Positions 29,070-60,200 of a DNA stretch of 64,000 bases are shown here, piece by piece. A program made the translations under genes and the position numbers. Numbering within the stretch: position 1 is the first letter of the stretch; every line of letters begins with the position of its first letter. The stretch is from Patescibacteria group bacterium (GTDB taxonomy: Bacteria; Patescibacteriota; Microgenomatia; Levybacterales; UBA12049), in contig BPJB01000001.1 of assembly GCA_026004395.1 (NCBI GenBank), positions 15,543-79,542 of the forward strand. Direction: 5' to 3'. Below the pieces are notes generated by a model, which was given only the letters and a program-made list of their open reading frames with translations, was not told the DNA's origin and did no database searches.

Positions 29070-29409
29070 CTTCAGTTATATGATTTATCAAGTAGGAGAT
29101 TATTGCTTTGCAATGTTATTTAGCAAGTAGTTAGACCACTAAACCTCAGAGATTTTTATATCTATTTACAGACTTCCTTGAATTCAGAGAATATTTTTTA
29201 TCTTCAAACAGAGTAGAGTATCTACTAACACAAGTGATTAAGTCATCAATGTAGTGGGGGTGAGAAAAAGATTGTTTTAGCTTCTAGTAGTGTATTTCTT
29301 ATTGGGTGAAAAATATGCAGGTATACAGGTATACTTGGAGATTTAAATTTGAATTTTAATATCTTTAGGTTGCACCGTCTCTTTCTGAGATTTCTTTGGA
29401 GATATTTGA

Positions 29410-29967
29410 TCAATTCTTGGTAATATAAAAGTTCCCATAGTATGTTTTGTAACCTCCTTCCCAGAGCATGCGGATAATCTCAACAGCTTCTATCAGCATA
29501 TCTTGGCGGTCATTGATTGGCGGCCATCCCATTCCTACCACATGTTCGTTAAGGTTCTCACCTGTGCCTAATCCTAAAAAGAACCTTCCTTCCAAAAGTG
29601 AGGCAGATGTTGCTGCCGCCTGCGCAATGATAACAGGATGAATTCTCAAAATGGGACAAGTGACTCCTGTTCCCAGTCGGAGATTACTTGTTTTTTGTGA
29701 AATACCCCCTAAAACACTCCAGACAAAAGGTGATTGCCCTTGTTGTTCTATCCAAGGATGGAAATGGTCAGAAATGAGCGCAAAAGTAAAGCCGCTTTTT
29801 TCAGCTTGGGTTGCGTAGTCAATAAGTTGTTTGGGGTTATGTTCCTCTGATGAAAGTGCGTATCCAAGATTAATCATACATAAACTGTAGTGGTTGATTT
29901 CAAAGAAAGGATGAGATATTTGGTAGGAATCTGTAAGAAGAAAGAGGAGTTTTTTGGTACAATACAT
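29410..29967 (-). pseudogene. LLM-class (luciferase-like) flavin-dependent oxidoreductase, N-terminal ~185-aa fragment only
   Basis: LLM N-terminal signature (…ISDHFHPW…LGLGTGENLNEHV…) but only about half of a normal ~330-aa protein. Followed by ~330 bp of non-coding DNA. Confidence 0.5.
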
Positions 29968-43629: not shown

Positions 43630-43704
43630 TCCGCGGTAGCTCAATGGTAGAGCAGGAAGCTGTTAACTTCAAGGTTCTAGGTTCGAGTCCTAGCCGCGGA
43701 GCCA
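43630..43704 (+). tRNA. tRNA-Asn (anticodon GUU), CCA encoded
   Basis: UCCGCGG/CCGCGGA acceptor, D arm GCUCAAUGGUAGAGC, anticodon loop CUGUUAA, T arm CUAGG-UUCGAGU-CCUAG, then GCCA. Confidence 0.85.
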
Positions 43705-44205
43705 AATTGTATGTTCAAAGGAAGCCGCCGACCCCCGCAAGGCGAAGTGGATTTTGATTGTTTCGAGTGAGTAAAGAATTTTAGAAAGAAACCTTTTGGC
43801 AAAAAAGTTTCTTTCAATTCCTTTTGATTTTTTGAGTCTGACAAGAAAAAATTTTAGAGTGTTTGAAATGTTTTCAAAGGAAAATTTAGAGCATACCTCT
43901 GGTAGTTCGTATCCAGCCCGGCACCCCGATTGAAAATCGTTATTTAAACGAAAAACAAGATTTTCGATATAGTTTTTATCAATCGAAATGCGCTCTAAAT
44001 TTTCCAGACAAAAATTTTCCAATCTTTCAGCGGAAATTTGTTTTACCGGGCAAGTTTGCCAATCCTGTCTTAGGGTTGAAGTACAGCGATAGTAATAATA
44101 TCTTTTTAATTTTTTGCCAGTTCTTTTATTGGTAAAACAAGATGTCATTTTAGAACTGCAATTTTCGCATTGGACCAATCCACCGAACAGAAAATTTCTG
44201 TACAT
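43690..44205 (-). pseudogene. large serine recombinase, C-terminal half only (zinc beta-ribbon + coiled coil + tail); catalytic domain absent
   Basis: FLFGGLVQCENCSSKMTSCFTNKRTGKKLKRYYYYRC…CPV matches the recombinase zinc-ribbon domain. No resolvase N-terminus. Its 3' end overlaps the tRNA-Asn 3' end. Confidence 0.65.
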
Positions 44206-44270
44206 AACCTAAGCGAAGAAGATTTAGTAAAGCTCACACACAGAACTGCTTTGCGCATACCACCATTTGT

Positions 44271-44630
44271 TTAGCTTGCATCGTCTATAGTTCTGGCGCG
44301 AAAGTTGATTATTTTTTTGAGTAGGCTAGGGGGGATCGGTTTGTCAGCAGTAAACTGCAGGGTACCTTTTGAACTCCGATACTTAACCAACTTTGGTCCG
44401 ACCGCATTGATCATTTCGTCGGAGGCTGGATATATGCTCATATGTTTGCTATGGGCAGCATAGTATATCAAAATCTTTTTGTGGTATTTGAAAGCGGGTA
44501 TACCATAGCTTATAATTTCCTCTACTTCTGGAAGCTGAGATTTTACTAAATTCCGAATCTTGATTAGCTCATCGCGATGTGACTCTGGCAAATCCTGTAA
44601 GTAGCCATCAACTGTTTGATGTTTTTTCAT
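44271..44630 (-). CDS. DUF1801 (YdhG-like) domain protein
   Basis: 119 aa; …ISYGIPAFKYHKKILIYYAAHSKHMSIYP… is typical of DUF1801. Confidence 0.7.
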   Translation of the reverse strand: MKKHQTVDGYLQDLPESHRDELIKIRNLVKSQLPEVEEIISYGIPAFKYHKKILIYYAAHSKHMSIYPASDEMINAVGPKLVKYRSSKGTLQFTADKPIPPSLLKKIINFRARTIDDAS

Positions 44631-44668
44631 AACCCAATTATATCAAATAGTAGCGATGCTGTATAGAT

Positions 44669-44812
44669 ATGACTAAAGAGGAGGTACTAGGTGGTACAGT
44701 GCACGAGCTGCCCACCGACCTGCGCAAAGCCTTGGCTGCCAATAAGGCGGTCTTAGCTAAATGGCAGAGCCTTACACCCCTGGCCCGCAACGAGTGGATT
44801 TGAGCTTTTAGT
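44669..44812 (+). pseudogene. YdeI/OmpD-associated-family N-terminal fragment inside a GC-rich (~58% GC) foreign segment
   Basis: 47-aa ORF MTKEEVLGGTVHELPTDLRKALAANKAVLAKWQSLTPLARNEWI* carrying the YdeI motif; it stops where YdeI proteins continue. Local GC is far above the window mean. Confidence 0.45.
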
Positions 44813-44990
44813 CAAACGAAATTAAGGAGTTCCTTGTTGTTGCGCGCGAATGGGCAGGGTGGGTCAAACGCAACTGTATTGGCGGCGCATTTCGCAAAGC
44901 GAAATACGAAATTCGGCGGCGGAAAAGCGAGGGTGGGCAAAAATTCCTTCCCCCAACCCCCTTCCTTTTTGCCCGCCCGAGCGTAATTTA

Positions 44991-45311
44991 TCAAAAATCC
45001 GGTTGCTGATTTTCCTTGGAAAAAGTTCGGATTTCGTTCAGAGTTCGGAGCCAGAGTTGACGAGAGGCTAAATTGGCTATCTTGTCAAAGGGGTTTAGAA
45101 AGTGGTATCGGACTTTTTTACCTTCTAACTCTAAGTTCTGAAGTGTTATTTTCAAAAGTAGTCGTTTTTCGTGAACTTCAGAACTCAAAAACAAATCATA
45201 AGCCTGATTAGCAAGTGTTAAAAGGTAGTTTGCTGTTAAATAATAGTTGTCTTCAGCTTTCTTAAGATTCGCTAGTTTAGTAAAATTTTTCATTAAAAAA
45301 TGCTTTGTCAA
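44991..45311 (-). pseudogene. serine-recombinase C-terminal-tail-like remnant ORF (repeat copy 1)
   Basis: …KRLLLKITLQNLELEGKKVRYHFLNPFDKIANLASRQLW… This sequence recurs in ORF 52865..53092 and in two further loci. Confidence 0.45.
45050..45186. repeat. ~135-bp repeat family, copy 1 (3' end of a recombinase-like gene)
   Basis: Read directly. Related copies at 52986..53108, 57682..57812 and a degenerate copy at 59931..59973. Confidence 0.8.
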
Positions 45312-45377
45312 ATCAATTTGTATTGTATTATACTATAAAGAAAAATAATTAAATATCTTTAATCAAAGTATTTAATT

Positions 45378-45755
45378 ATGAAATTTACTGAAATTGATCT
45401 TAATACAATTTATTTAGCTTTAAGTATTTTCTTGGCTATTTTAAATATTTACCAATTTTTTAAAAATAGAAGCGATGTAAAAATTCTCGATGGAATCTTA
45501 ACAATGTTACATAACACTTCAGAAAGCTTAAGAAATGCGCTTTTACAAATATCACAAAATCCCGATTCATTTACTGATAAAAAGGATGTTATAAACACAG
45601 TCGGGGCTGTTTCTCAGTTAGCTTCCGGAATGGTACAAGCAATCGAAGAACAAAGGTTTTATTCTTCAAAGAAAGAAGCTAAACAGATGAGGACTAAAAA
45701 ACAAGAAGAGTTTCAGAAAAAGATGAGTAGAATTTTAAAAAGATATAAACAATGA
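45378..45755 (+). CDS. hypothetical small membrane protein
   Basis: N-terminal TM helix; K/E-rich C-terminus. Confidence 0.35.
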   Translation: MKFTEIDLNTIYLALSIFLAILNIYQFFKNRSDVKILDGILTMLHNTSESLRNALLQISQNPDSFTDKKDVINTVGAVSQLASGMVQAIEEQRFYSSKKEAKQMRTKKQEEFQKKMSRILKRYKQ

Positions 45756-45773
45756 TCTCCCTCCAATAATTGA

Positions 45774-47564
45774 TTATACCTCTTTTGTAACCAAAACTTC
45801 TTCTCCTAACATATCAATTATTTTGACTGCCACTTTGGTTGGCTTTTCACTTATTTCAAGCTCATATTCGCCTTTTACTAAATCGCTCTGTCTTTCGGGA
45901 ACATCCGAGAAACCAATCTTGAATACTTCACCGTCGTAATCCGTATCAACCAGCACTACATCGATCATCGACCTGAAATCTGGAATTTTCTTCTGCAAGA
46001 GTCCTGGTTCAAGCTCCAAGCGCTTAATGATCGTAGGGGAAATAAAGGCTAAAATTTTAATCTTTACTTTGTCTTTGCCTATCCGTTTAATTTCCACTTC
46101 TGCTTTTGATGGTTCGTAACTCACAAAGTTTTTGTCTTTCAGGTCAAAGACAATAAACTGACGCATGCGTTTCTTGCTTCTGGTATCTTTATAGGGTTGC
46201 TTTTTATTCCATTCCTCAACCCAACCGTCTACCTTTGTCTCCCTGCCCAGTGAGATGACCACTACATCTCTATCCTCGTCTGGGCGCTTATTAAGCTCAT
46301 CAACGATTAGCTGCAGGTCAAGTAGCGTTAAGGGGTGATTGAAATCTATAATTTTGACCAGCTCGCCACTATCCCGCAGACCGTCAAAGAAAGTGTCTGT
46401 TTTAGTTTTAGTAATTCCGTATTGCTGGATAGCCAATTCTTTAGCTTCAGTCTTCAAGATTCTTAAATCGTAGTTATTAACCTTGTAAATTGCGAAAGTG
46501 GGGTATTTTGTTTCTTTTTGATCTTTGATGATTTTTTGTAATCTTTTACTTGTTACTTGAATTGCTCCCTTATTAACATCAACCCCAATCCACCGCCTAC
46601 CCAATTTATGTGCTACCGCACAGGTCGTTCCCGAACCAACAAAACAGTCTAAAACTAAGTCGTTTTCGTCAGATGACCCTTTAATAACTTTCTCTAATAA
46701 AGCCTCTGGTTTTTGTGTAGCATAATTAGTTCTTTCTATGGCTTGAGAATTAATGATTGCAATTTCCCAAACATCTTCTGGAAGCCTTCCTAATGGATTA
46801 ACCTTCACAATTCTACCAAAAGAGGTTGTGCCAGATTCTGCTTGTTTTATTGTGCCTTCTTTGTAAGGAGTCCTTACTAAATCGATGTTAAATTTATAAC
46901 TGCTTTTATTCTTACAATAGAGGAGAATTGTATCATGCTTATGTAAATATTCCTTTTTAACCGAGCCTGATGGGTCTTTATAATGCCATACAATCTCATT
47001 TATAAGATTTTCTTCTCCAAATATTTCATCCATTAAAACTTTAATGTAATGAACCATCCTGTAATCCAAGTGGATATAAATACTGCCTGTTTCTGCCAGT
47101 AATTCCTTCAGCAAAATTAACCGCTCATACATAAACTGGAAGTATTCATCCCGTTTCCAAATATCTTCATACATCGTTTGTTGAATTATCGATTCACTGT
47201 CTTCTTCGATCCTGCCCAAATCTTTTAAGCCCCGCAGTTCAACTTTTCTCATGTAGTCTTTGTTGCTGGCAAACGGAGGATCGATATAAATCAGGTCAAC
47301 CTTGCCTCTGAAGCCAAGTTCCAAAAGTGTTGCTAAGACTTCTTTATTATCTCCATGAAACAGAAGATTGTGCCAATTTTTTTCAAGCTCGCTGAATTTA
47401 GGGGTTTCTGGGAATTTATCTTCCTTCTGGGGGTCAAAGACTTCAATTAGTTGTGTAGGGAAGCCTGTGACATATTCTAACGGGTGTTTATTAACCCAAT
47501 GGAGTAGAGGTCTGCCTTTTGGTGTTTCAACTTTTATTTTTTTGTTTGATTTATCATCTGTCAT
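45774..47564 (-). CDS. mod: Type III restriction-modification N6-adenine DNA methyltransferase (Mod)
   Basis: Motif IV IYIDPPF, motif [12 protein letters not shown]; 596 aa; start overlaps the res stop by 4 nt. Confidence 0.85.
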
Positions 47565-47566
47565 AT

Positions 47567-50152
47567 TTATTTTTTGTGTTGGTAAATCCAGTTAAAAACT
47601 GGCATAACTTTACCAAATACCGACTCTCCTTCCTCTAAAAGCAGGAGTTCATACTTTATTTTATCAGGATTTATCGCTTCCAGCTCTTGCATCTCTTTTT
47701 CAGCTTCCTTAATCCTGTATTTTGGCGCTTTTACCTCCACGATTAAAGATCTACCATCTTTCTTGCGAATTAAAAAGTCGGGGGTATAACTGTGCCAGTC
47801 TCCCTTGTCGTCTTTGTATTCAAAGATTAAATCGGTTTTAGCGGGATCGTTAATTGCGCCTGTGTAATAAATGTCCTCAACATTATCGGGGTCTTCACCA
47901 AGTTTAATAAGCATACTCTCAAAAAACTCTCGTTCATACTCTGAGTCAAAATTGTAAGGGTCGTAATGAAAGCCAAAGAGCGGTAGTTGTCCAGCCTTTG
48001 CTTTGTAGTCCTTCAGCTCCAGCACATATTTCTTCAGAGAGGTTTTGTTAACCCTAATGTGGGTCACATAGGAGGTTTTGCCGTCAACAGTTTCTTCTTC
48101 AAACCCTTTCTGCTTGATAAGAGCCAGTGCTTCTTCGACTGTTTCATTGACCACTTTGTAGCGCATGGTTTGTTTTTCTATTTGGGTGCGGATAAGTTCC
48201 AGTTCAAACGCCCCAATTTCTCCGTCTGGGTATAAGTTTTGGAGCAGTTTATAAGTTTTTAGCGAGTCTAAGCGGTAAGCATGAGCCAAAACTACGGCAG
48301 CTTGGAACAGGTCGATTTTCCTGTCTGTTACCGCTCCCTTTTTAGTTCCCACTTCAACCAGCACCCCTTTTCTCTGGGCTTTGGACATGGAATAAATGGT
48401 CTTTTCAAAGGATTTGACCGTTTCTTTGCCTGGTTTATCGATTTTTAGACACTCTTGCGCTTTCAAGTCTTCTGGGACTATCTTTTGGATGAGCTTTTTG
48501 ATAAGCAAAGGCGGCAGTTCAATCTTTCTAAGAGTTACTTTAACTGTTACCGTGTCCGTAGAAACCCTGTTGAGATCATCCAACCCCTCACCAAAGGTTT
48601 CTTGCAACTGCCGATCAAGAATGGAGACATTGTCTTTTGAGAGGTAAATCTTGGCTTTTTTGGTGTTGCCATTGACTTGTCTTAAACATCGACTGGCAGC
48701 TTGCAAAACAAAGTTATTGCTTGAATTAAGTTTCCTTGCCAGAGCGGTAGCGAATAAAGATAAGCAGTTCCACCCTTCTGTGCCTTTGTTGACGAGCAGG
48801 AAGACTCGGTAGGGCAGTTTGGGATCGTTAATGCGGTTGTCAAAAAGGTCTTTAATCTCATCAGTTGACTTGTTATGCACTGGCAGTACAACTGATGGGT
48901 CAATTTTTAATGAGATGAGAGTTTGCTCAACAATAGGCTTAGCTTTTTCTAGATCATCGACCTGAGGGAAGTAGATAGCCAGCTTGGCATATTCGCCGCT
49001 CTCAATTTGAACATCTTTGTATTCTTGAAAAAAGTCTTTAACTACATCAACAATGAAATCATGATCAGATACATCGGAATAGGCAATGATGTTGCCTCTT
49101 ACTTCTTTTAAGATTCCATCCTCAATACCTTGTGATAGTCCATACCAATAAATAACATCTCGCAGAAGCTGTCTTTGGTAATAGGGTGTGCCTGTGGTGT
49201 TAACTACCGCTAAAAGATTGGTTTTCTCGGCAATGTAGTTGATTGTCTGTCTGACCCTCTTCAGGTCGCTTGCCAGCTCCTGTCCGTAGGTGTGATGGGC
49301 TTCATCTGAGAAGACTGCCAAGTGAGGGAGCGAGGTAATGGTTTGCAACCTTAAATTAGCCACCAGCTCTTTTGCTTCTTCAATTCCCAGCCTCAACTGC
49401 CCTGACAGGAAAGATTTGGGGATACTGTTCTTTTGAAGTCTTATTTTTTCAGTGTTGGTGACAATAACATTAAAGGAGCTGCCTCGGATAACGGGAATGT
49501 CTTTCTCGCCATCCCTGGTGTAGGTGAATTTAACATTGGTGATAAAAGATTTATAGAAACGAGGGGGAAGTATTTTGTCGTATGGTGTGTCAGAGATTTC
49601 TCTCAAAGCACCCAGTATGGTCTTGCCAGGTGCAAATACCAGGGCATTTTTGATAAATATGCCATCTTCTTCCTGATATTCCAAAGCCATCGCAAACTCG
49701 GTAGCGATGATGGAAGCTATAAGGATTGTCTTACCTGCTCCCATTGCCAATGCCAGGATATAACTGGGGTATGAGAGAGTGAGTGTTTCTCTTAATGCTT
49801 CAAGCCTGTATTTCTTAACAAATACATCGTTGGTTCTGACTTTATCAATAATGAGATCTAATCCACCTCCTGCTAATAAGAGATCTGTCAAATCTTCCTC
49901 TGACAAGCAGATGCCGAGTGCCTTTAATAGTTCTTTTCCTTGAAAGTATTCCTTGTAAAGATTGAAGATGTTTGGTGTGTTTTTGACTAAGCGTAAATAC
50001 CAGTAAGTTTCTAACGCCTCAAATTGTGCCTTTCTTAGAAAGTCATTCTGGTTATGCTGGAAAATGGTGGCAATAGCAGGATAAGAGGAAGGATAATCTT
50101 GCTGTCTCCAATTAGCAACATCTAATTTCAATTTTTGATAAAGATTGATCAT
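47567..50152 (-). CDS. res: Type III restriction enzyme Res subunit (SF2 helicase + PD-(D/E)xK nuclease)
   Basis: Walker [13 protein letters not shown] box FSDEAHH, C-terminal PDFLI…VEVK nuclease motif; 861 aa. Confidence 0.85.
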
Positions 50153-50340
50153 ACCTTTTGTTTTTGTATAAACTTATCAAGTTCTGCTTTATTGATACGA
50201 TATTGTTTCCCAATTTTGAAAGCCTGGAGCTTTCTTGCTTGTACCCAACGATACACAGTAAGATATGCAACCTTTAGTATGTCTGCTACTTCTCTAATTG
50301 TATAAAATTCCTCTACTTCTCTTTTATCCATATTTAACAT
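50149..50340 (-). CDS. small HTH DNA-binding protein (excisionase/AlpA-like fold); putative controller of the R-M operon
   Basis: 63 aa; YTIREVADILKVAYLTVYRWV HTH; stop overlaps the res start by 4 nt. Confidence 0.55.
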   Translation of the reverse strand: MLNMDKREVEEFYTIREVADILKVAYLTVYRWVQARKLQAFKIGKQYRINKAELDKFIQKQKV

Positions 50341-50356
50341 TATTTAACATCTTGCC

Positions 50357-50944
50357 TTAAATTGCAAGTAATCTTAATGGTTCAAATTTGTTTATCTGTT
50401 CTCTAAGTAGTGAGAATACGCTTGGCTCGTCAGCTTGGGTAAGGCTTTTCATTTCCTTGTTAAGACTATACCAAGCAGAGCTGCCGTATCGTTTGGTCAT
50501 TTCTCTAAATTCTCTTATGCCAATTTCCTCAAGCAGAACCCTCAAGCCCAGAATTTTCAGAATAGGTATCAGCTTGATTTTAGGATTTGCAATTAAAAAA
50601 CCAGTAAAAAACTTTTTAGGGCTTTCGTATTGATAGGTTAGTAAAGGCGGGTAGGCTTCTTCAATTTCTCTGATGTAGTGAAGTAAGACCTTTTTGGCTG
50701 TGTCTTGGTTAAAGATGTTTGTAAAAGTTGGCTCAAAGTCCTTATCTATAAGTTTAAGAATTTGGCTGATTTTTTGCCGTTTATTTAGCCTTATTTCAAC
50801 TCGCAAAATCTCAAAAGGTCTTTTTTGGGTGAGAATATCAAATAAGCCTAGTTGCAGGGCGTTGTCATTTTCTTCAGGCGTCAAAACTAACCCCTTTGAT
50901 TGGAATTTGGTTTTCTTAAGCTGAATAACTTTGTCGTTTTTCAT
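50357..50944 (-). CDS. hypothetical protein
   Basis: ORF track; same strand and operon as the R-M genes. No recognisable motif. Confidence 0.4.
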   Translation of the reverse strand: MKNDKVIQLKKTKFQSKGLVLTPEENDNALQLGLFDILTQKRPFEILRVEIRLNKRQKISQILKLIDKDFEPTFTNIFNQDTAKKVLLHYIREIEEAYPPLLTYQYESPKKFFTGFLIANPKIKLIPILKILGLRVLLEEIGIREFREMTKRYGSSAWYSLNKEMKSLTQADEPSVFSLLREQINKFEPLRLLAI

Positions 50945-51018
50945 TAAGCAAAGTCTATGAAATGGGGTGTAAGCTGAAATTGTATTGCAGTTAGCTAACA
51001 GTTAGCTTATGCGAGAAG

Positions 51019-51735
51019 TTAAAGATATTTGGGGTTTATCTGAACGGTTGATTTGGTATAAATCAAAAGGTCGTTAACGCCAGTTTTCTGGGCTATAAAT
51101 TTGGATAATCCGTCGCAAGCAGGATAAAATTTCTTTTGGTTTTCTTTTAATAAATCTAGGTCGGTAATGCCTTCAATCGTTTCTATAACCTCGTCCCAAG
51201 ACCACTCTTTTTTACGGCTTTTATCATCTTTTAGTAGTAATTCAAGGAGTTTAGCCCTAAAACTTTCTTTCTTGAATTTAACTTTTTTGCCTTCAATATC
51301 CAGCTCGCCTTTTTGGGCGCTATAGGTTACTTTAGGTTTTACTTTCGTTGAGTCTGGCGTAAGCGTCGCCTTTGGTTTTTCAGGCTCTTTATTAGATTTG
51401 TCTCTTCGTTCTAATTCGCTTCTAACTTTTTCCATAAAATCATAGAAGGGTTTTATATTAACAACAACTTTGATGCTGTCATCCCATCTGTGCATCATTG
51501 AGTCAATGTGCTTAAATTCTGAAAGAACACCCTCTTTATGAAGATACTTTACTGCTTCCCATCTACCCTCAATATACTCATCCCTAACGCCTGGTGTGTC
51601 ATAAGGAAAAAGTTCTTGGAAGTAAATTCTTGGCGGCAGAAGTGGGATAATCACGGTATTCTCTCTGTTCAATTGGACTTTCTCTTTTATTGCCAACATC
51701 GTATCAAATAATCTTAAGAGATTAAGATAGGTCAT
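51019..51735 (-). CDS. hypothetical protein; the reading frame continues upstream to an ATG at 52085 through one in-frame TAA (52033-52035)
   Basis: About 110 stop-free codons lie upstream of the annotated Met with no alternative start. Possible pseudogene. Confidence 0.4.
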   Translation of the reverse strand: MTYLNLLRLFDTMLAIKEKVQLNRENTVIIPLLPPRIYFQELFPYDTPGVRDEYIEGRWEAVKYLHKEGVLSEFKHIDSMMHRWDDSIKVVVNIKPFYDFMEKVRSELERRDKSNKEPEKPKATLTPDSTKVKPKVTYSAQKGELDIEGKKVKFKKESFRAKLLELLLKDDKSRKKEWSWDEVIETIEGITDLDLLKENQKKFYPACDGLSKFIAQKTGVNDLLIYTKSTVQINPKYL

Positions 51736-52124
51736 CTCACTGATGCCACTTTTCTGTTTGAGTAAGTAATTTTCATACCAGTCATCAAATCCTTCTGAGA
51801 CAGTAAGGAGAAAATAATCTATTGATGTGATTTCTAAATGTTGAAGCGGTTTTAATTCAGAAGGTATATCCTGTATTTGAATAATTTTTTCGTCATCTTG
51901 GAGTTTTAATAAGAAGTCGTGTATTTCCTGAAGTATTATTTGTTTAAGTTTATTGTCGGTTTTTGCATAAAGTTTAATGGGATGTCTTTTACGAGCAATT
52001 TTGCGGGCTTCATTTATTGTTTCAGGATTATATTAAGTTTTTCTTCGTATGTCATAGGTCATTACTTTTTCAATCTTATTTATCATATTTTATCAATTTT
52101 TGGTAAAATAGTCTTGATATAACT

Positions 52125-52862
52125 ATGTTTCAAAAATTAAAATCTTCAACATTACTTTCAAAAATAAATGTTATTAGCTCTTACTTTTGGTTTATAAGCA
52201 CGGTCTTTTTTATTACGATTATTTTCCTGTCTACAAAGGGCTTTACTATTGACCCCTGTTATGGTAAGGGTTGCTCCGAACACCATTATTTGTTACCTAT
52301 GCTTTCTTCATTTTTTGCGGGGTTGTTCTTCTTTGGGTTAACTGTATTTATGGGATTTTTGAGAGTTTTATTAAAAGCTGAAAAATGGAAACCCCCTATA
52401 AATCTTGGTTCTTGGAAGATTGGATTTGCAACATTTTTAGTGGTGTTTATTTCTAGTGTTTATGTCGTCGCTTTATTTAGAGGGAGTGCTGTTAGATGGG
52501 GTGGAAGTTATACAGGACAAGATTTATTTAATGCCGTCAATCAACATAGAAAATCACTAGGCTTAAAGGAAGTAAAGTTAAGTGAGGGTTTATGTGATAA
52601 TCTTGTGTCTCGTTGGCAAGCGGTAAAAGAAGGTCGACAACACGAAGGTTTTGATGATTGGATAAAACAAGAGGGTATTCAAACAAATTATGGTTATAAA
52701 GAACTTGTAGAGTTGTACATACAAGCTTTAACGCCCGCAGAAGCAATAACTTTTTGGTCTGGTAGTCCAGGTCACAGAATACAATTAGAAAACCCAAAGT
52801 GGATTGATGGTTGTGCTTATGCTAATGAGGGCTATGGTGTAGTGGTAATGGGCATAAAATAA
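52125..52862 (+). CDS. membrane protein with a C-terminal CAP/SCP (YkwD-like) domain
   Basis: Four TM helices, then a CAP-like C-terminus (SPGHRIQL…DGCAY). Confidence 0.55.
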   Translation: MFQKLKSSTLLSKINVISSYFWFISTVFFITIIFLSTKGFTIDPCYGKGCSEHHYLLPMLSSFFAGLFFFGLTVFMGFLRVLLKAEKWKPPINLGSWKIGFATFLVVFISSVYVVALFRGSAVRWGGSYTGQDLFNAVNQHRKSLGLKEVKLSEGLCDNLVSRWQAVKEGRQHEGFDDWIKQEGIQTNYGYKELVELYIQALTPAEAITFWSGSPGHRIQLENPKWIDGCAYANEGYGVVVMGIK

Positions 52863-52864
52863 TC

Positions 52865-53092
52865 TTACAATACAGCAAAGGCAGGCTTGGGTTGGCTAAT
52901 TCCTAAGTTTTCAAACGCAATTTTAAGGTCGTTTAGGCTTATATTAAACTCTAATCTATCGTTGCAGAATAAGTCTTTTAGGGGGAGCCAGAGTTGACGA
53001 GAGGCTAAATTGAATATATTGTCAAAGGGATTTATCCAGTTAAATCGGACTTTTTTACCTTTTAGTTCCAAGTTCTGAAGTGTTAAATTCAA
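52865..53092 (-). pseudogene. serine-recombinase C-terminal-tail-like remnant (repeat copy 2)
   Basis: MNLTLQNLELKGKKVRFNWINPFDNIFNLASRQLW… DNA repeat spans 52986..53108. Confidence 0.45.
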
Positions 53093-53128
53093 AAGTAGCC
53101 GTTTTTCATACTTGTTCTTAGTAATCCT

Positions 53129-53596
53129 TCAATTTATTAATTTACCTAGAGTTTTTAGCACTTTTGTTTCTCTATTTTCTTCCTTTGGCAAGTAACCAAT
53201 TAAACCGCTTTCTATGGCTTGATTACAAGCTATTGGAGCTTTTCTGCTTATTTTTAGAATTTCCGAACCAGGATTTCCTTGGAGGATTCTCATTTGATCA
53301 TGCTCGCTCATTCTTTTTGAGGAAGGAAGTATATTTTGGTATGATTTACAAAACAAATAGCAGTAAAGCCAATTTCTCTCCAGATTGCTTCTAATTCGTC
53401 TACCCTCAAAATACTTGGTAAGCATACTTGGTAAGCACAAACCTTTTTTTATGTCTTTCAAGAGAGATTTTTCATTCTCATCCATTGGTTCTCTTTCTAG
53501 GAACATGTCGTTTAGTACCACTCTTCCTGATGATTTAAGAACCCGATAAATTTCTTCCATAACTGAGTTTGTCATAAGAGTGAACATAACTCTCAC
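53129..53596 (-). pseudogene. class I SAM-dependent methyltransferase, C-terminal fragment
   Basis: Begins …MEEIYRVLKSSGRVVLNDMF, resembling methyltransferase motif III/post-II. No SAM-binding GxGxG N-terminus. Confidence 0.4.
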
Positions 53597-53854
53597 AAAA
53601 AATAACTAATCAAAAATTCCAGGAGGAAAAGCAGAATTATGATAATTGTTCAGTTACACCATATTATGGTGTAACTGAACATCTAACATTTTACGATCTA
53701 ACCTTACGGTGCCACTTCTTGCCACTTCGCAATTCTACTCTTTGATAGTTTTTTAGGGGAAATTAACTAAAAAGTCTGGGCGAAACTCAAAATATTCAGC
53801 AGGATAGATAGCATTGTTTTCTTAAGATTATCAAAGAGACCATTAAACCAAGAT

Positions 53855-55678
53855 TTATATAATCTCTATCATAAAATCTTTTGCCTCGGGAAAGGGAGCA
53901 TATCGTGGTGACTGCAATGAGGACATTAACTCAATTGTTGGCAATAATGGGAATTTGTTTCTAATTCTTCGTCCTCTGCTTTCTTGTTGTCTACGTTTTG
54001 TTACATGTTCCCATGTGTTTCTTCCATCAATCATTCTTTCTTCAAATACATGCACCAATGGTTTAATAAGAACAGGATTATCAAAACCACCAGAAATCAT
54101 TGATATACCCGTAGCATAACTTGGCATAAAGGCAGAAACTACTGCCTGTATTTCTGGATAATTGTTTTTTATGTGATTGAATGTAAGTGAAAACATGCTA
54201 CTACTTGTATTTCCAGGAGCGCCAGGGCGACTATAAAGTCTAGTTAGGTCATAGCAATAACAAGGGTTATAGCCTTGTATCAATAAAACATTTTGTTTGT
54301 ACGGACGATCAATCTTCTCCAATGCAAGAACTGAAAATGGTAAATCCTCCCCTACTATGTACAATCCGAAAGCAATATCAGCTCGGGGAGTATGAATATA
54401 ATGTAAATCTTGATGGAATTGCTTTGCAAATTCTGGATTAATTTCTCGGAATGCAAGTGGCACTAGTCCGGCTGTCGCTGTTACACCTTCTTCCTGTACT
54501 GCAAAGATTGCGTTTCCTCTTTTTTGTATCACCCATCCAGGTTCAGCAAACATTCCTGTACGGGTCAATATTCTTTCAACTGGAAGTGAGCTATTTTGCA
54601 ATCTTTGTTTGATGATTAGGTATTGTTCTTCAATCGTTGCAGCAAGTATCTTAGGATTTATCCTGAACTGTTGGATAAATTGTGCATCAAGATTCAAGAT
54701 ATTTCGCCAGTCAACATAAGCGCTATGATCCCGTAAGTAATTATTAAGTTGTGAGCCGTTAACAAAAACATCGGAAACTTCATAGGTTGTAAGGCGGAAA
54801 AGCGTTTGATATTTTAAATCTTGTGGATCACATAAAATATTATTTTTTTGGATATATTCGTCTACTGCAGCTGCAACCTGTTCTCGGGCATGTGACATTA
54901 GTGCATCTTTTGGCCAATTTACTAATCGGAACTTTGGAACCATAATGATTTCTCCCTTTGCTAAGGCGGTAGCTAATTCTCTACGCCTTCTTTCAATCTG
55001 TCCTTGTCTTACTACCTCTCTCAACACTCCAAAACGTATAGCTCCATGTTTCATTGTGGTAATTGCATGATCTGCCTTTTTCTTCATATTTACATTGTTA
55101 ACAACGTTAATTCCTTGAAATAGTATTCTTGGCCCGTTAACAGGGATTTGAGTGGGATTGTTTTCTTCTATAGCCAATTGAGTTTCTTGCTTAGCAAAGT
55201 CTTTTATCCACTGAAGCACTTTTCCTAATACCATAGAATCTCCTTCTAATTGTTGAATATCAGTGGTGAGTTGATCCTCGTATCTAACAGAATCAGCAAT
55301 AATATCTTGGTCAGTGCCATCTTGTAATCTTACATGTATTCGTAGTTCATTACCGTCACCTTTCTTAAATCTCATTCGTCCAAGTATTTCTTCTACCGTT
55401 TTCCCTCTTGCCTGTTTATTTTTTCTTCCAGCAGGCATTGGGATATGTTCTCTGCGCATAAGCCATGCCACCGCCCGAAGCACTTCATAAAATCGTACTG
55501 GAGTAAAACCTAAATCTCGGATCTGCTCAAATACATCTCGTAATTCTGGTTCTGTTAATCCATATGTGGTGAGTGATATATTAAATCTTCTCAATTGATC
55601 GAGCTTGGCTGATTTATCAAGTCTTCCAAAACTTTCACGAATTGGTTGATGAATAATTGGTGCTTCTTGTTTGCTCAT
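53855..55678 (-). CDS. large hypothetical protein (607 aa), no confidently recognisable domain
   Basis: ORF track; divergent from the adk/Ham1 pair. The C-terminal half has a Cys-containing segment (GYNPCYCYDLTRLYSRPGAPGNTSS). Confidence 0.5.
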   Translation of the reverse strand: MSKQEAPIIHQPIRESFGRLDKSAKLDQLRRFNISLTTYGLTEPELRDVFEQIRDLGFTPVRFYEVLRAVAWLMRREHIPMPAGRKNKQARGKTVEEILGRMRFKKGDGNELRIHVRLQDGTDQDIIADSVRYEDQLTTDIQQLEGDSMVLGKVLQWIKDFAKQETQLAIEENNPTQIPVNGPRILFQGINVVNNVNMKKKADHAITTMKHGAIRFGVLREVVRQGQIERRRRELATALAKGEIIMVPKFRLVNWPKDALMSHAREQVAAAVDEYIQKNNILCDPQDLKYQTLFRLTTYEVSDVFVNGSQLNNYLRDHSAYVDWRNILNLDAQFIQQFRINPKILAATIEEQYLIIKQRLQNSSLPVERILTRTGMFAEPGWVIQKRGNAIFAVQEEGVTATAGLVPLAFREINPEFAKQFHQDLHYIHTPRADIAFGLYIVGEDLPFSVLALEKIDRPYKQNVLLIQGYNPCYCYDLTRLYSRPGAPGNTSSSMFSLTFNHIKNNYPEIQAVVSAFMPSYATGISMISGGFDNPVLIKPLVHVFEERMIDGRNTWEHVTKRRQQESRGRRIRNKFPLLPTIELMSSLQSPRYAPFPEAKDFMIEII

Positions 55679-55770
55679 AAAAACACTTCAAACCTAAGCT
55701 GAAGTGTGGTATAATTATAGGATAACAAGGTGTAAAAATCAATTTTAACTAGACTCATGTTTCGTAAACT

Positions 55771-56388
55771 ATGAGGTATATAGAAAGATATAGACCAAAA
55801 GAAGGAGAAGGACATAATAAGATACTTGTTATAACTGGCGTTCCCGGATCAGGAAAAGATTTTCTTTTGTCGGAAGCAGTAAAACAAGGTATAATCCCTT
55901 CTTCAGTTAGGATGTTCAGCTTCGGAGAAGAATTATTTGCTTATTTAAAAACAATCCATCCACAGATACAGATAAGAGACGACGTTCGAACATTATTAAC
56001 TCAAGATGATGTTTGGCAAGGGGTAATTGGAGTAATAGACAAATTAATACAAGCACAACCAGCAATACTTAATACCCATGTTGTTTATCGGCAAAGAGAA
56101 AGCCTTATTACAAATCCCAATGTTGATAAGAGAATGCACCCCGCAGGTTATTTATTCGTATGGAGTGAACCTAATCAAATAGCAGAATGGCGAGCACGCG
56201 ACATATCGAGGGGGAGACCGCCTGAATCAATAGATGACATCGCATTGCATCAAGATATTGCATTGGAAGTTGTATCTGTGGTGGCAAGACATACAGGTGC
56301 ATGTCTCAAAACTGTTTGGAATCGAACTGATAATGTTGCAGATAATTTAGCTCTAATACAGGAACGAGCAAGAGAACTCACCCCTTAA
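55771..56388 (+). CDS. archaeal-type adenylate kinase (AdkA-like P-loop nucleotide kinase)
   Basis: ILVITGVPGSGKDF P-loop. Alignable along its length to archaeal AdkA (…FSFGEELF…, …NTH…, …IALHQD…). Confidence 0.65.
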   Translation: MRYIERYRPKEGEGHNKILVITGVPGSGKDFLLSEAVKQGIIPSSVRMFSFGEELFAYLKTIHPQIQIRDDVRTLLTQDDVWQGVIGVIDKLIQAQPAILNTHVVYRQRESLITNPNVDKRMHPAGYLFVWSEPNQIAEWRARDISRGRPPESIDDIALHQDIALEVVSVVARHTGACLKTVWNRTDNVADNLALIQERARELTP

Positions 56389-56418
56389 TTTCCCACCATT
56401 TTTCAGTATAATATTACA

Positions 56419-56976
56419 ATGAAGAAAATTTATTTTGTTACTACAAATCAGTATAAGTTCGAAAAATTCACTCAAGCGATTAGCATTCCAGGTATTGAAA
56501 TTGAACAATTATCAGAAGAAACACCGGAAATACAAGCACCTAATAACCGTCAAATTGCAGAATTCTCGGCCTGGTTTACTGCTCAGAAAATTAATCTTCC
56601 TGTTATAACAGAAGATGTTGGCTTGTACATACAAACTTTAAGAGGTTTCCCCGGTCCATACCTTAATCAGATTGAAAAATGGATAGAGACAGATGGTTTC
56701 TTGCAGCTTCTACTTAACAAAAAAGATCGATCAGCATATTGGGAATACGCAATTTCCTACTGTGAACCTAGACAAACTCCTAAAACATTTTATACACATC
56801 AAAAGGGAAGCATAGCAAAAGAGGCAAAAGGAAACAGCGGTTGGTATATGGATAAAATTTTTATTCCAGAAGGACAAGTAAAAACTATTTCAGAATTATT
56901 AGATAACAGAGAGTATGTTAGAAATGATGACCATTATCTGCAATTAAAAGAATATTTATTAAAACTGGGAAAATAA
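56419..56976 (+). CDS. Ham1/ITPA-family non-canonical purine NTP pyrophosphatase (eukaryote/archaea-like)
   Basis: YFVTTNQYKFEKF, ITEDVGLYIQTLRGFPGPY, DKSAYW, GWYMDKIFIPEGQVKTISEL. These track human ITPA/Ham1 more closely than bacterial RdgB. Confidence 0.78.
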   Translation: MKKIYFVTTNQYKFEKFTQAISIPGIEIEQLSEETPEIQAPNNRQIAEFSAWFTAQKINLPVITEDVGLYIQTLRGFPGPYLNQIEKWIETDGFLQLLLNKKDRSAYWEYAISYCEPRQTPKTFYTHQKGSIAKEAKGNSGWYMDKIFIPEGQVKTISELLDNREYVRNDDHYLQLKEYLLKLGK

Positions 56977-57113
56977 TCTTTCCTACTTCCCTACGTGTCA
57001 TATTACGATACATTGTATAGAGAGGTTATGTTTTTGTTTTAGATATTCGGCTGGTGTCTGATAACCCGACTGTCTTAATCTTACCTTGAGGTTATAGTTT
57101 ATCAATTAATCAG

Positions 57114-57272
57114 TTAGTTTCTCTTTAAGGTTCTTGACATCACCAAAGAGGTAGCATCTCTGAAGACCTTGGCTTTTATCTTACCGTTGAATCTCTCAAC
57201 CATACCATTTGTCCCCGCCTGCGTCCTTCCGAATCGGAGGACTTCGAGGTGGGCAGGCAGGGGTGTCTGAAT
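57114..57272 (-). pseudogene. DDE (rve) transposase C-terminal remnant
   Basis: Minus-strand translation …LRFGRTQAGTNGMVERFNGKIKAKVFRDATSLVMSRTLKRN*. No upstream body. Confidence 0.5.
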
Positions 57273-57681
57273 TTAATAGTTTCGTGTTTTATCTTTTCTT
57301 TCTGGCAGAGTTTATCAAAGGGATGAGTCTTCTTTGTTTTTTATTCTTGGGTAAGAAATTGTGTCAACCAAGAAACTCCAAACTTACGAGCTAAAACACT
57401 TATGGGTAGCAAGCCTTGACTGAATCTCCTTCCTTATGAGATAGTTAGCTCTGGCATTCTGGTGTAATCTCTGCAACATAGTTGTTAAGACATTATATCC
57501 TTAACAACGTATCGTAATCATACAGTTATTTATATTTTAAAATAATTTTTTATACAGTATCTTAATAAATAAAATATAGTGGAATCAGAGGTGGGATAAT
57601 TTATGCGGTAGCATACATTCTCAAATCAGGGAGATGTAAATATGCTCATTTTGCTGTTGTATAATAGTTCTAACGCTGTTT

Positions 57682-57812
57682 ACGATGTGGAGCCAGGCTT
57701 AACAAGAGGCTAAATTGGCTATCTTGTCAAAAGGATTTATCCAGTCATATCGGGCTATTTTGCCCTTTATCTATAAGTTCTGAAGTGTCATCTTCAAAAG
57801 TAGCCGTTTTTC
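57682..57812. repeat. ~135-bp repeat family, copy 3 (no associated ORF)
   Basis: gccaggcttaacaagaggctaaattggctatcttgtcaaaagg…aagttctgaagtgtcatcttcaaaagtagccgtttttcgtgg. Confidence 0.75.
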
Positions 57813-58030
57813 GTGGACTTTAAGAAATCTCCAAGAGTTTCACTGTGTTTAAAATCAGGTTTTCAGTTATTTTTTTTAGTTTGAGAGTACTTTGGATAAA
57901 TTTAATTAATTTTCAATTCAATATTCTCTTTCTAAAATCAGACAAAAGTTTTTAAGATTGAATGATGAGATCTAGGTAAAGTAATAGCGCTATAATAACT
58001 ACCTTTTGTTATATAATATTATTTAATAGT

Positions 58031-58726
58031 ATGTATGAAAGAAAAAGGATGGATAATAAATTATTTTCATCCCCTTTTGCAAATAAAGAAGACTTATGGA
58101 AAGAAGGATTAGATAATGTTCTTAAGAGATATTTATCTTTTCCTGAGAATAAGATAATAGAGACGGATTTTGCTTATAATGTAGTTTTTAATAATCCCCG
58201 AGCTCTGGATATTGTAAATGTAGAGAATGATGAGAGATATTTAATCTACCTATCAACAGAGTCAGATAAAACTTCATATGACATGCTTAGAACATCCAAG
58301 ATACCTCTTTTAGGAGATAGACAAGAGACATATGGATTAACTGTTATCCGTATTCCTCTGCATACAAAAGGGCTTGGAAGTATAGTTTATCCTGAACAAT
58401 ATTTTACAGGGCAAAGATATTTAGGAGCTTTAGAAATTATGCGTGAATTAGGAAAATATATAGGTCAGATATATAACAGAACAAAACATGTCCCTAAAAC
58501 TCTTGACTTAAAAAAATTTGCGATTGTAGGTGGTGAGACAGGATTAATTCGTATGGTTCCCCCATATGAATTATCAAGTGATTTTAATGAATTAAATTTT
58601 GTTAGTAGTCTTGCTCAAAGTTTAAAAGAATGCGATCCAGTAAATAGCGATAAGCACGATATTCATGTTCAGGTTTTTTACAGGAGTTTGAAAGATGTTA
58701 TAAACAAAGATGTAAAATCTGAATAG
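58031..58726 (+). CDS. hypothetical protein (first gene of a two-gene operon)
   Basis: ORF track; 10-nt gap to the next ORF. Confidence 0.4.
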   Translation: MYERKRMDNKLFSSPFANKEDLWKEGLDNVLKRYLSFPENKIIETDFAYNVVFNNPRALDIVNVENDERYLIYLSTESDKTSYDMLRTSKIPLLGDRQETYGLTVIRIPLHTKGLGSIVYPEQYFTGQRYLGALEIMRELGKYIGQIYNRTKHVPKTLDLKKFAIVGGETGLIRMVPPYELSSDFNELNFVSSLAQSLKECDPVNSDKHDIHVQVFYRSLKDVINKDVKSE

Positions 58727-58735
58727 AATATTTAT

Positions 58736-59866
58736 TTGCATTACTGTTATATGTTAGAACTTTCGCGAAGTATTAATAATGAAAAAATTAAAACATATTA
58801 TGACAATGAGAGCAATCAGCATCCGGTCAATACACTTAATCATTGGATTAAAGCTTTTAACAATTCTAGAAGGTCTGCGGTAAGTGTTGATGCATTAAGC
58901 TTCAGTAATAATTACGATCCTAATCACGCAATTGAAGAATTTTATTATCATCTGAGCAGCAGGCAAGGATTAGAGCTAATTATACCCCGATATCCAAATA
59001 GAAGAGAATTATTAAGTTTTTCTATGCTTGATGATTCTGATTTGTTAATAAGAGGCGGAAGTGCTCATGGCGTATTCTTTGTACAGGGCAATACTCAGGA
59101 GGTTAGAAGTGGCAAAATAAAGAAGTCTAAAATTGATTTAGCAGTTAAGCAATTTTCTGATCCTCAGAAGGCAATGCGTGAGTTTCTAATTACTTTAGTG
59201 GTTAGACAGCGCATGATAGATTTTGTGAAATACCTAAAGAATTATGGAGAAGTATCAATCAATGGTTGTCTTTTTACACCTATACAACCAATAGCTCTTT
59301 TTGTTGATAAAAAACAGGGATATCTCTTGACGCGAGCAAACAGAATGATTACATCCTTAGACCAAGAGCCATGGTCGCAATATTGGTCAGCAACAGATGA
59401 AGATAAAAAGCGAATACAGAATAGATTTGCTAAAATTTCTATGCTCCTTGCCAATTTACATAGTAATGGTATTTTTCATGGAGATGCACAGATTAAAAAT
59501 TTTGTAGTTTCACCGCATGGATTTGTAGGAGCTATTGACTGGGAAGCTGCTTATTTGGCACCTGTGGATTTTGTGGAGATTCCTTCAGATATATTAATAG
59601 GGAAGGCAACATCAGACCTACAAATATTTTATAAATCTATTTCCGAAGATGATAAAAATTTGTCAAGATTAGAGTTAATAACGGGTAGTCAAGAACAAAA
59701 GTGGGAGTTGTTTAGTAATCTAGTTATCGATCCATACATGACTCAATGGCTGGAAATCAGTGAAAAACACAACTCTCATGGCAGCAAGAGTGAAGCGTTA
59801 TTTAATTGGGAGAATTTTTATGAACAACTACAAAAAGAACTCAAGCGATATATTACAGCTAAGTAA
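58736..59866 (+). CDS. protein-kinase-like fold protein (Kdo/WaaP/APH-like)
   Basis: G-rich loop IRGGSAHGVFFV, Lys in DLAVKQF, catalytic-loop-like LHSNGIFHGDAQIKNFVV, and AIDWE. Confidence 0.5.
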   Translation: MHYCYMLELSRSINNEKIKTYYDNESNQHPVNTLNHWIKAFNNSRRSAVSVDALSFSNNYDPNHAIEEFYYHLSSRQGLELIIPRYPNRRELLSFSMLDDSDLLIRGGSAHGVFFVQGNTQEVRSGKIKKSKIDLAVKQFSDPQKAMREFLITLVVRQRMIDFVKYLKNYGEVSINGCLFTPIQPIALFVDKKQGYLLTRANRMITSLDQEPWSQYWSATDEDKKRIQNRFAKISMLLANLHSNGIFHGDAQIKNFVVSPHGFVGAIDWEAAYLAPVDFVEIPSDILIGKATSDLQIFYKSISEDDKNLSRLELITGSQEQKWELFSNLVIDPYMTQWLEISEKHNSHGSKSEALFNWENFYEQLQKELKRYITAK

Positions 59867-59930
59867 TCACCAAATAGGTTTAGTAATTTTAACAGGATTT
59901 ATTAGAAATCACATCGAATTTTTGTCTTTT

Positions 59931-59973
59931 AGCTTCAAATTCAGAAGTGAGTTTTCAAAAAGAGTTGTTTTTC
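59931..59973. repeat. degenerate 4th copy of the recombinase-tail repeat
   Basis: cttcaaattcagaagtgagttttcaaaaagagttgtttttc; minus-strand translation …TLFENSLLNLKLKDKN…. Confidence 0.5.
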
Positions 59974-60200
59974 TTAGATTGTAGTGTAATTGATTATACG
60001 ATAAACATCTCACTCTTTATTTGGGTGTTATAAAGTTAAATCAATATACTACTATACAATGAAGATTTTGCATTCTGAATCAATGAGATATATATTTAGA
60101 AAAAGGTAGCATTAGGACGAATTTCAATTTAAAACATATATTAGCATCTAAAATCCCTCTCACTAAGAGGGATTTTAGATAGTTAATTAGTAGACAACGT

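Follow-up and report, generated by a model that had tools for sequence, protein, structure and literature searches.

The 64,000-nt window studied here is a stretch of contig BPJB01000001.1 from a Patescibacteria group bacterium (positions 15,543 to 79,542 of the forward strand; coordinates without a locus label are those of the window), and our subject is the region that begins at its tRNA-Asn gene and extends from 43.7 kb to at least 60.0 kb, in which remnants of large serine recombinase (LSR) genes recur. The features on which the argument rests are the following.

43630-43704 (+): tRNA-Asn(GTT), the putative integration target
43690-44205 (-): remnant of an LSR gene of the family that we call LSR-A; PF13408 Zn_ribbon_recom (E 1.1e-10) is its sole Pfam match
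45048-45282 (-): repeat copy 1; nhmmer E 2e-56, profile positions 66-300
52985-53109 (-): repeat copy 2; nhmmer E 1e-29, plus a 22-nt piece at 53106-53127 that corresponds to profile positions 2-23
57690-57840 (-): repeat copy 3; nhmmer E 3e-34, profile positions 151-300
59895-59976 (-): repeat copy 4; nhmmer E 1.2e-4, profile positions 175-257, also a 22-nt repeat match

ARAGORN called the tRNA-Asn gene, which lacks an intron, where an earlier note on this DNA had placed it, and the Pfam match of the open reading frame (ORF) at 43690-44205 agrees with that note's description of an LSR zinc ribbon without a catalytic domain; this ORF runs into the 3' end of the tRNA, terminating in ...WLRG and a stop codon. 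A repeat search of the window gave three direct copies of 132 nt with 83% identity (45047-45178, 52984-53115, and 57689-57820) and no fourth copy beyond these three. Scanning the window with a DNA profile (nhmmer) built from 65 related units of other genomes gave four copies, all on the minus strand. The four-member family proposed earlier is thus recovered, including its degenerate last member, except that copy 4 is strongly decayed and lacks its last 43 nt, so that the tRNA-side end is gone. The last 7 nt of the tRNA, GGAGCCA (43698-43704), are also the first 7 nt of copies 1-3, and repeats of the tRNA 3' end, which the earlier note had suggested looking for, are present at these boundaries. 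Decay grows with distance from the tRNA: the reading frame of copy 1 is intact and open (ORF 44991-45311, 106 aa), copy 2 has lost an internal segment between two GAAAAACG repeats (its translation reads RITKNKYE/EKRLLL..., the slash marking the junction), copy 3 contains two in-frame stops, and copy 4, the last detectable marker of the island, is barely recognizable. Codon-position bias within the three window copies alone was uninformative because the sample is too small.

To find related loci we compared a profile of the repeat peptides with one genome per species, which yielded 76 loci (given L numbers below), nearly all of them in Patescibacteria-type metagenome-assembled genomes. Relatives of the minus-strand peptide of copy 1 in protein databases are short ORFs only (74-149 aa), and the search with PF07508, PF13408, and PF14287 that had been suggested as a check gave no match to the 106-aa ORF of copy 1. 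Full-length open frames that finish with the same tail were found at 27 other loci of Patescibacteria; they span 486-569 codons (counted from the start codon, about 485-550 aa) and start MKAIIIARVSTEEQ... The one protein of this set that was scanned against Pfam, that of L043, starts MKAVIIARVSTEEQ and contains the Resolvase (PF00239, E 4e-18), Recombinase (E 5e-14), and Zn_ribbon_recom (E 4e-8) domains. In tblastn, copies 1, 2, and 3 align to about residues 407-490, 433-490, and 441-490 of these proteins. Because 27 full-length genes end in the tail and the L043 protein has the domains of an LSR, we conclude from sequence comparison that the window repeat is the 3' end of one genuine LSR gene family, LSR-B, in line with the earlier reading of the repeat as an LSR C-terminus; the tails do match serine-recombinase C-termini, since they end genuine full-length LSRs.

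Neither a Recombinase nor a zinc-ribbon domain is left in the LSR-B copies of the window, the Resolvase domain PF00239 is absent from the window, and tblastn with full-length LSR-A and LSR-B queries detected no recombinase body in the 64 kb. Every recombinase in the island is, as judged from these searches, inactive. The earlier note had also seen a resemblance between the repeat and the tail of ORF 43690. This did not hold: BLAST with LSR-A relatives misses the LSR-B regions and vice versa, so that the two are not detectably related, and by this measure the tRNA-adjacent fragment and the repeats are members of different LSR families. Relatives of LSR-A carry PF07508 and PF13408, and one also carries PF00239. 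Among the 95 relatives recovered for the LSR-A fragment, none is longer than 300 aa, and those on long contigs (31-498 kb) are C-terminal pieces of 170-253 aa; the LSR-A family may also be systematically truncated. The LSR-B tail has no relative in IMG/VR, which gives no support for a viral origin, and the tail profile has no sequence match in the PDB.

We also considered that the repeats are an intragenomic dispersed repeat, a segmental duplication, or an assembly artefact that has nothing to do with integration, as might be suggested by four copies in one orientation within 15 kb. However, identity between the copies is only 83% and their flanks are unrelated, each copy compared by tblastn matches tails in other genomes, copies 2 and 3 have flanks that are conserved elsewhere, and the same architecture occurs in many independent assemblies. 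We give this explanation next to no credence.

The anatomy of LSR-B elements can be read directly from the related loci. The elements are 6-10 kb in size and have the LSR-B gene at one end, reading across attP; the backbone order in full-length elements is P arm, MTY, a 390-aa protein, a variable slot (often occupied by restriction-modification genes), LSR-B, and the tRNA. The L015 contig (1-9230) has identical ends of 75 nt and hence represents a free circle of 9,155 bp, which carries MTY and g195-type backbone genes (g195 being the window's partial counterpart of the 390-aa protein) together with a full-length LSR. In this circle, the LSR ORF runs through attP (...QAWL/PLKDLFCN...) and gains an extension of ~40 aa. 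The same PLKD-type P arm, here lacking a tail, marks the far end of several mini-elements and of 14 single full-length elements, with ..GCTC in front of it and unrelated DNA beyond. In the elements examined, both full-length and mini, this ..GCTC next to the P arm is the original end of the tRNA, displaced to the far side.

A core, TGGCTCCCCC, is common to attP in L015 and to attL and attR in L054. The core TGGCTCC(CCC), 7-10 nt long, is the same in attP and attB, is antisense to the acceptor/CCA end of the tRNA, and is also found in the tRNA and in copies 1-3 of the window. Because the comparison of attP with attL and attR gives this common core, we infer that crossover takes place within it. 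At related loci with an ARAGORN-called tRNA, the W-L codons that close the LSR-B sequence (TGGCTC) extend 5 nt into the 3' end of tRNA-Asn(GTT), and in L001 and L025 into the end of tRNA-Gln; in all tRNA-adjacent loci, tail and tRNA end meet at the identical base. Integration accordingly exchanges the last ~40 codons of LSR-B for tRNA-antisense codons. Two other crossover models were rejected. A flank consisting of a partial tRNA and GGACTATCTCAT could have been an attP with crossover in the anticodon loop, yet L018, L043, and L007 have a complete tRNA-Asn with an RF00028 intron; and crossover at the truncation site S1 described below, with the tail as a resident attB, is ruled out because none of the intact tRNA-adjacent elements carries a second tail at its far end, the P arm being there instead.

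With intron-bearing tRNAs counted, tRNA-Asn is the immediate neighbor of 20 of 27 full-length genes and of 14 tail-only units. Among integrated cases, full-length genes are tRNA-adjacent in 20 of 26, and tail-only units are internal in 17 of 35. Many relatives have a group I intron in the anticodon loop of tRNA-Asn(GTT), and such tRNAs are not called by ARAGORN; RF00028 (Rfam, 62-105 bits) confirms the intron in L018:10260-10474, L043:10274-10522, and L007:10277-10479, and 13 more loci were put in this class by the pattern of their flank sequence only. The dnaG-rpoD-tRNA-Asn neighborhood is shared by about 25 loci with different downstream content, which is not what a block conserved in synteny among all relatives, the finding that was to count against an island, would look like. 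We conclude that the tRNA-Asn site downstream of dnaG-rpoD is a hotspot across Microgenomates-type Patescibacteria. Tail-only units are found at tRNA-Gln as well (CTG and TTG; L001:10043-10407 and L025:8863-10302), and in L025 TGGCTG, antisense to the tRNA-Gln 3' end, precedes the distal P arm; the sampled loci contain no full-length LSR-B at tRNA-Gln.

Three further loci show other arrangements. In L022, an LSR-B element of 8.0 kb that is not tRNA-adjacent is enclosed by a 107-nt direct repeat (2232-2338 and 10229-10335) composed of the TGGCTC core and an 'ENRNTN'-class P arm; this element is probably an internal member of an array. In L017:1419-8875 and L062:943-17565, the LSR-B tail is directed away from dnaG-rpoD, which suggests inversions within the island. 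As a separate observation, L037:6331-8040 encodes a third LSR type of 569 aa that ends ...LPLRDLFINKKLEF..., and the PLKD-like C-terminal extension hence extends beyond LSR-B.

With the copies as boundaries, the window divides into five modules.

Module 1, 43.7-45.0 kb: LSR-A fragment, DUF1801 gene, YdeI fragment
Module 2, 45048-52984: copy 1 tail, Type III restriction-modification genes, g195, MTY, CAP-like gene, PLKD-type P arm
Module 3, 52985-57689: copy 2 tail, Mom-family protein, kinase, Ham1, P arm of the L071 class
Module 4, 57690 to about 59894: copy 3 tail, kinase-fold genes
Module 5, from 59895: copy 4 fragment only

Module 2 retains the order of the full-length elements in L023 and L061 (MTY, g195, restriction-modification slot, tail) and is a gutted LSR-B element that has kept backbone genes and P arm. 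Both att arms without a recombinase are present in module 2 (copy 1 tail to PLKD P arm) and in module 3 (copy 2 tail to VRT-type P arm). To its left, copy 2 is flanked by a P arm of the PLKD type, the class that follows the LSR in the L015 circle and is distal in the 14 single elements of full length; the flank on the left of copy 3 matches the sequence behind the full-length LSR in L071. The window junctions are hybrids of P arm and tail, as would be expected of successive integrations on the tRNA side. Specifically, a newcomer would insert at the tRNA and displace older elements outward, and each insertion would leave a junction between the P arm of the newer element and the tail of the older one, attP-like and corresponding to repeat copies 1-3. 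We are confident that serial LSR-mediated integration at the tRNA-Asn end, with older elements losing the recombinase body, best accounts for the region. The interval from 43.7 kb to at least 60.0 kb would then be an accretion island of at least five integrative elements, in which four of the five modules come from the LSR-B family and the youngest (43.7-45.0 kb) used a different LSR family. Repeated integration at one att site, as the earlier note had put it, is supported by the shared core, the P-arm flanks, the tail abutting the tRNA at the same base, and the gradient of decay.

How the bodies were lost is best examined in other genomes. Counting LSR-B remnants that are not cut by a contig end, 23 start exactly at one site, which we refer to as S1 (GT/ATTACT; here and below the slash marks the site), and only 5 are cut elsewhere. 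All 40 full or long genes read ..GGNNGT/ATTACT.. at this position, encoding G-(R or S)-I-T near residue 385; ATTACT is invariant in 40/40, synonymous positions included, and the preceding base is T in 39/40 (C in L003). Of 22 distinct tail-only units, 21 have A, G, or C before ATTACT, and GGNGR stands before this base, preceded by unrelated DNA. Window copy 2 likewise starts at S1 (AGG/ATTACT). Similarity to the full-length relative begins at S1 in five of nine units tested and 5-7 nt upstream in three others. For some units the second parental site could be identified.

L017 / L023: GGTGA/TTTCTT
L062 / L033: ACGGA/ATTAAC
L013 / L018: GAAAAT/CTTACA
L006: CGAGG/ATTACT

The deletions join S1 to S1-like sequences, removing the catalytic body and always keeping the tail and the attP side. 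They give rise to mini-elements of 0.9-2.4 kb or to gutted elements such as module 2, which retain both att arms but lack a recombinase; non-autonomous elements formed in this way would be movable in trans by a full-length LSR-B. Tail-only units occur in all five tail subfamilies, are 89-96% identical to their nearest full-length relative, and show a ratio of nonsynonymous to synonymous substitution (dN/dS) of 0.16 against full-length genes, compared with 0.14 among full-length genes; internal stops occur in only 1 of 23 tail-only units (over 100 codons). Because of this subfamily spread, the high identity, and the low dN/dS, the truncations are, by all appearances, recent and recurrent. The exact endpoints are seen in the sequences themselves and lead us to infer that loss of the body is a site-specific event rather than random decay. 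The earlier note had proposed that older recombinase genes were lost and that only the part overlapping attP/attB survives. The bodies are indeed gone, but elsewhere their loss is a recurrent deletion at one nucleotide, not gradual decay, and the remnant found in other genomes is a discrete ~300-nt unit, far longer than the att site, of which the window copies are shorter pieces. Base-exact truncation at S1 appears to be new. We detected no consistent conserved hairpin around S1, only a palindrome of 3-5 bp (AGT-ATT-ACT), and the idea that the S1 partner is a 'YGYRRIT' transposase motif of the IS3 type was dropped because it has no Pfam support.

A precise boundary at S1 could also mean that the modules never had a recombinase of their own but were LSR-less cassettes with the tail unit, from S1 to the core, as their recombination site. 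One LSR-B would then insert them in trans at tRNA-Asn in the manner of an integron. Mini-elements of 0.9-2.4 kb with P arm and tail and no LSR (L017, L025, L053, L013, and L062) fit such a cassette system, as do the tail-only units at tRNA-Gln without a full-length counterpart in the sample. Moreover, the restriction-modification genes of module 2 are 80-90% identical at the amino acid level to those by the tail-only unit of L059, which belongs to a distant host with core genes only 51-62% identical. By contrast, module 2 retains the MTY and g195 genes of autonomous elements in their normal order. Also, the tail-only units match full-length tails at the identity given above, with mostly synonymous differences (dN/dS 0.01-0.25 in the closest pairs) and in all five subfamilies; therefore, they arise repeatedly from full-length genes and do not form a separate lineage. 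The window contains no recombinase and no tyrosine IntI that would make an integron-like platform, and its boundaries are LSR gene remnants. Because trans-mobilization of derivatives is also compatible with serial integration and body loss, we regard cassettes without an ancestral recombinase as improbable.

The open frames of the tail units raise the question of whether they are kept as a small functional protein, i.e. the C-terminal coiled-coil or DNA-binding part of the LSR, acting as a regulator or decoy of incoming recombinases. That 22 of the 23 tail-only units of other genomes have no internal stop over 100 codons, that median dN/dS is 0.17 between tail-only pairs vs 0.14 between full-length pairs, and that window copies 1 and 2 have open frames would all be expected of such a protein. 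However, recent truncation of functional genes explains low dN/dS equally well, the units have no conserved start codon or ribosome-binding site, an in-frame TGA lies right before the first codon of the unit in L017, L024, and L044, and of the window copies, the third is interrupted by two stops and the fourth is degraded. We consider retention as a protein very unlikely.

Returning to serial integration with loss of the body at S1, several points weigh against it or limit it. No excision or integration has been observed for this genome, and the window has no intact recombinase. To our knowledge, canonical LSRs do not recombine attP with attL, and our case for accretion is therefore drawn from the structure of the junctions only. 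The profile match of copy 1 begins at position 66, making its start at S1 doubtful, and copies 3 and 4 are too short to tell the mode of body loss. Relatives share no genes with the window at 60-64 kb, and no right border was found. Finally, we assigned the distal flank of module 1 (44991-45047 on the minus strand) to the LSR-A element with uncertainty, because it resembles the 'VDxVRT' flank class that is found after tails in L014, L056, and L057 and otherwise accompanies LSR-B tails.

As a more speculative extension, S1 might be the working nick or recombination site of an element-encoded enzyme, and LSR-B elements might routinely shed body-less derivatives (S1, tail, attP, and cargo) that full-length relatives re-insert at tRNA-Asn in trans. 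We think this rather unlikely; if true, S1 would be a built-in maker of non-autonomous cargo cassettes, that is, a serine-recombinase cassette system in ultra-small Patescibacteria genomes.

The remaining genes and flanks of the modules, listed from the tRNA outward, are as follows.

44271-44630 (-): DUF1801 protein, module 1 cargo; PF08818 E 1.5e-15
44690-44803 (+): YdeI/OmdA gene fragment of 37 aa, module 1; PF13376 E 1.7e-8
44991-45047 (-): distal end of module 1, minus-strand reading ...RTLNEIRTFSKENQQPDF; abuts the copy 1 core
45774-47564 and 47567-50152 (-): mod and res genes of a Type III restriction-modification system, module 2 cargo; PF01555 E 4e-57 and PF04851 E 3e-6; amino acid identity 80-90% with L059 and 74-82% with L034 and L062
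50357-50944 (-): backbone gene g195, module 2; C-terminal half of the conserved 390-aa LSR-B-element protein
51019-52032 (-): backbone gene MTY, module 2; the ATG-started ORF is 51019-51735
52125-52862 (+): CAP-like secreted protein, module 2; faint PF00188 match; adjoins the P arm
52868-52984 (-): P arm of module 2, 'PLKDLFCN...' class; tblastn E 1.4e-13
53129-53596 (-): 155-aa ORF, module 3; stops 3 nt short of the S1 junction of copy 2; Methyltransf_31 match only faint, E 0.16
53855-55678 (-): 607-aa protein with a Mom-family domain, module 3; PF25680 E 7e-7
55771-56388 (+): AAA_17 kinase, module 3; PF13207 E 5e-11
56419-56976 (+): Ham1 ITPase, module 3; PF01725 E 9e-25
57627-57689 (-): P arm of module 3, HIVNSVRTIIQQQNEHIYIS class; the same flank stands after a full-length LSR-B in L071 and after a tail in L072
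58031-59866 (+): module 4 cargo, a 231-aa ORF and a 376-aa APH/Kdo-type kinase-fold protein; PF01636 E 1.9e-5, PF06293 E 4.6e-4

Most of the cargo named in the earlier note was confirmed, namely DUF1801, the YdeI/OmdA fragment, the Type III mod and res genes, the AAA_17 kinase, Ham1, and the APH/Kdo-type kinase; its transposase remnant was not found, and its methyltransferase fragment was left with the match at E 0.16, so that the 155-aa ORF is possibly a methyltransferase fragment. The YdeI/OmdA fragment lies inside a G+C-rich patch (G+C 0.435 across 44200-44799). The Mom-family protein, the AAA_17 kinase, and Ham1 (53855-56976) may form a DNA or nucleotide-modification cargo set. In the related loci, g195 has 27 matches, every one upstream of LSR-B, and MTY has 14, upstream of g195 and LSR-B. 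The CAP-like protein is 81% identical at the amino acid level to its counterpart in L068, which is likewise placed beside flank and tail.

The full 390-aa form of the g195 protein is found in L054 (5097-6269), where a SpoVG-like gene precedes it. This protein has no sequence match in Pfam, NCBIfam, PHROG, or the PDB. Its motif FYDK...LRVEIRLNRRQ recalls RIYNK...WRVEIELKRD of RepD/RepDE (PDB 4CWC), and the comparison is not significant; we rejected a RepD-like (Rep_trans) rolling-circle initiator because the resemblance is at the level of the motif only, hhalign to the RepDE motif giving E 0.09 with the Tyr unaligned. An AlphaFold model of the protein had a pLDDT of 45 and was unusable.

At the right side of the island, of the ORFs that flank elements in 13 related loci, none is represented in the window apart from one Ham1 match inside the island, and G+C and skew show no clear edge. 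The related loci recovered include no empty site and no close relative of this genome. A weak LSR-like match near tRNA-Met (29376-29471) was dropped because it falls within ordinary ORFs. Elsewhere in the window, a 300-nt sequence is directly repeated without a single mismatch (10829-11128 and 11231-11530, 402 nt apart), and the overlapping 121-nt repeats in 12-nt register shifts at 6506-7336 probably belong to a repetitive coding region.

A tandem island at a tRNA gene is an ordinary structure of a known kind. In staphylococci, SCCmec and composite staphylococcal cassette chromosome (SCC) elements are inserted by the LSRs CcrAB or CcrC at the 3' end of the conserved gene rlmH (orfX) as tandem islands split by short direct repeats, and many SCC units have no ccr genes and rely on recombinases in trans. 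Unlike the island described here, however, SCC elements have a protein-coding target, their ccr genes are internal and do not span attP, and their recombinase-less units do not carry a recombinase tail. Accretion of integrative and conjugative elements and related mobilizable elements (ICE/CIME, e.g. ICESt3 of Streptococcus), in which a newcomer enters the att site of a resident to give tandem arrays and defective elements keep attL and attR and are co-mobilizable, is similar in concept, but it involves tyrosine integrases and conjugative transfer, and we recognized no conjugation genes here. The tycheposons of Prochlorococcus, as described by Hackl et al., reportedly target tRNA genes by means of tyrosine or large serine recombinases and are said to lie in tandem in islands of a streamlined genome, with variable cargo and degraded or satellite copies; their recombinase and backbone families differ from those found here, and we know of no report of a fixed truncation point in a tycheposon recombinase gene. 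In elements of the SSV1 type, attP lies inside the int gene, and the tyrosine integrase is split in two on integration. Integration alters the recombinase ORF in both cases, but in LSR-B elements only the last ~40 codons would be exchanged.

The ssrA islands of Dehalococcoides offer the nearest comparison with a cited description. They are tandem islands at the 3' end of a small RNA gene, bounded by 20-bp direct repeats of the RNA gene end, with an LSR of ~540 aa (DsiB, CcrB-like) on the reverse strand directly beside attL and a Mom homolog in the integration module; some have no integration module and are discussed as cis-mobilizable (McMurdie et al. 2011, PMC3146451). The words 'truncated' and 'degenerate' are absent from the text of that paper. 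The present island resembles them in this general plan and also carries a Mom-family protein, in module 3. In contrast to them, its target is tRNA-Asn and not tmRNA, its host belongs to another phylum, a core of 7-10 nt takes the place of the 20-bp repeat, we saw no DsiA-like second small recombinase, and the LSR ORF crosses attP and overlaps the tRNA end. A term-based literature search joining large serine recombinase, Patescibacteria, and tRNA found no paper.

The features that set this island apart are an LSR gene that reads across attP into the tRNA end, a hotspot that spans the lineage, and the base-exact truncation at S1. Together, the data define one widespread element family of Patescibacteria, bacteria with tiny genomes, by its attP, attB, attL, and attR sites, a free circle of 9.2 kb, and a dnaG-rpoD hotspot that collects defence and nucleotide-modification cargo. 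LSRs with defined att sites are useful for genome engineering, and the sites reconstructed here are directly testable. Truncation at S1 points to an unrecognized process that makes recombinase-less elements with both att arms, and this bears on how islands become fixed and on the origin of satellites.

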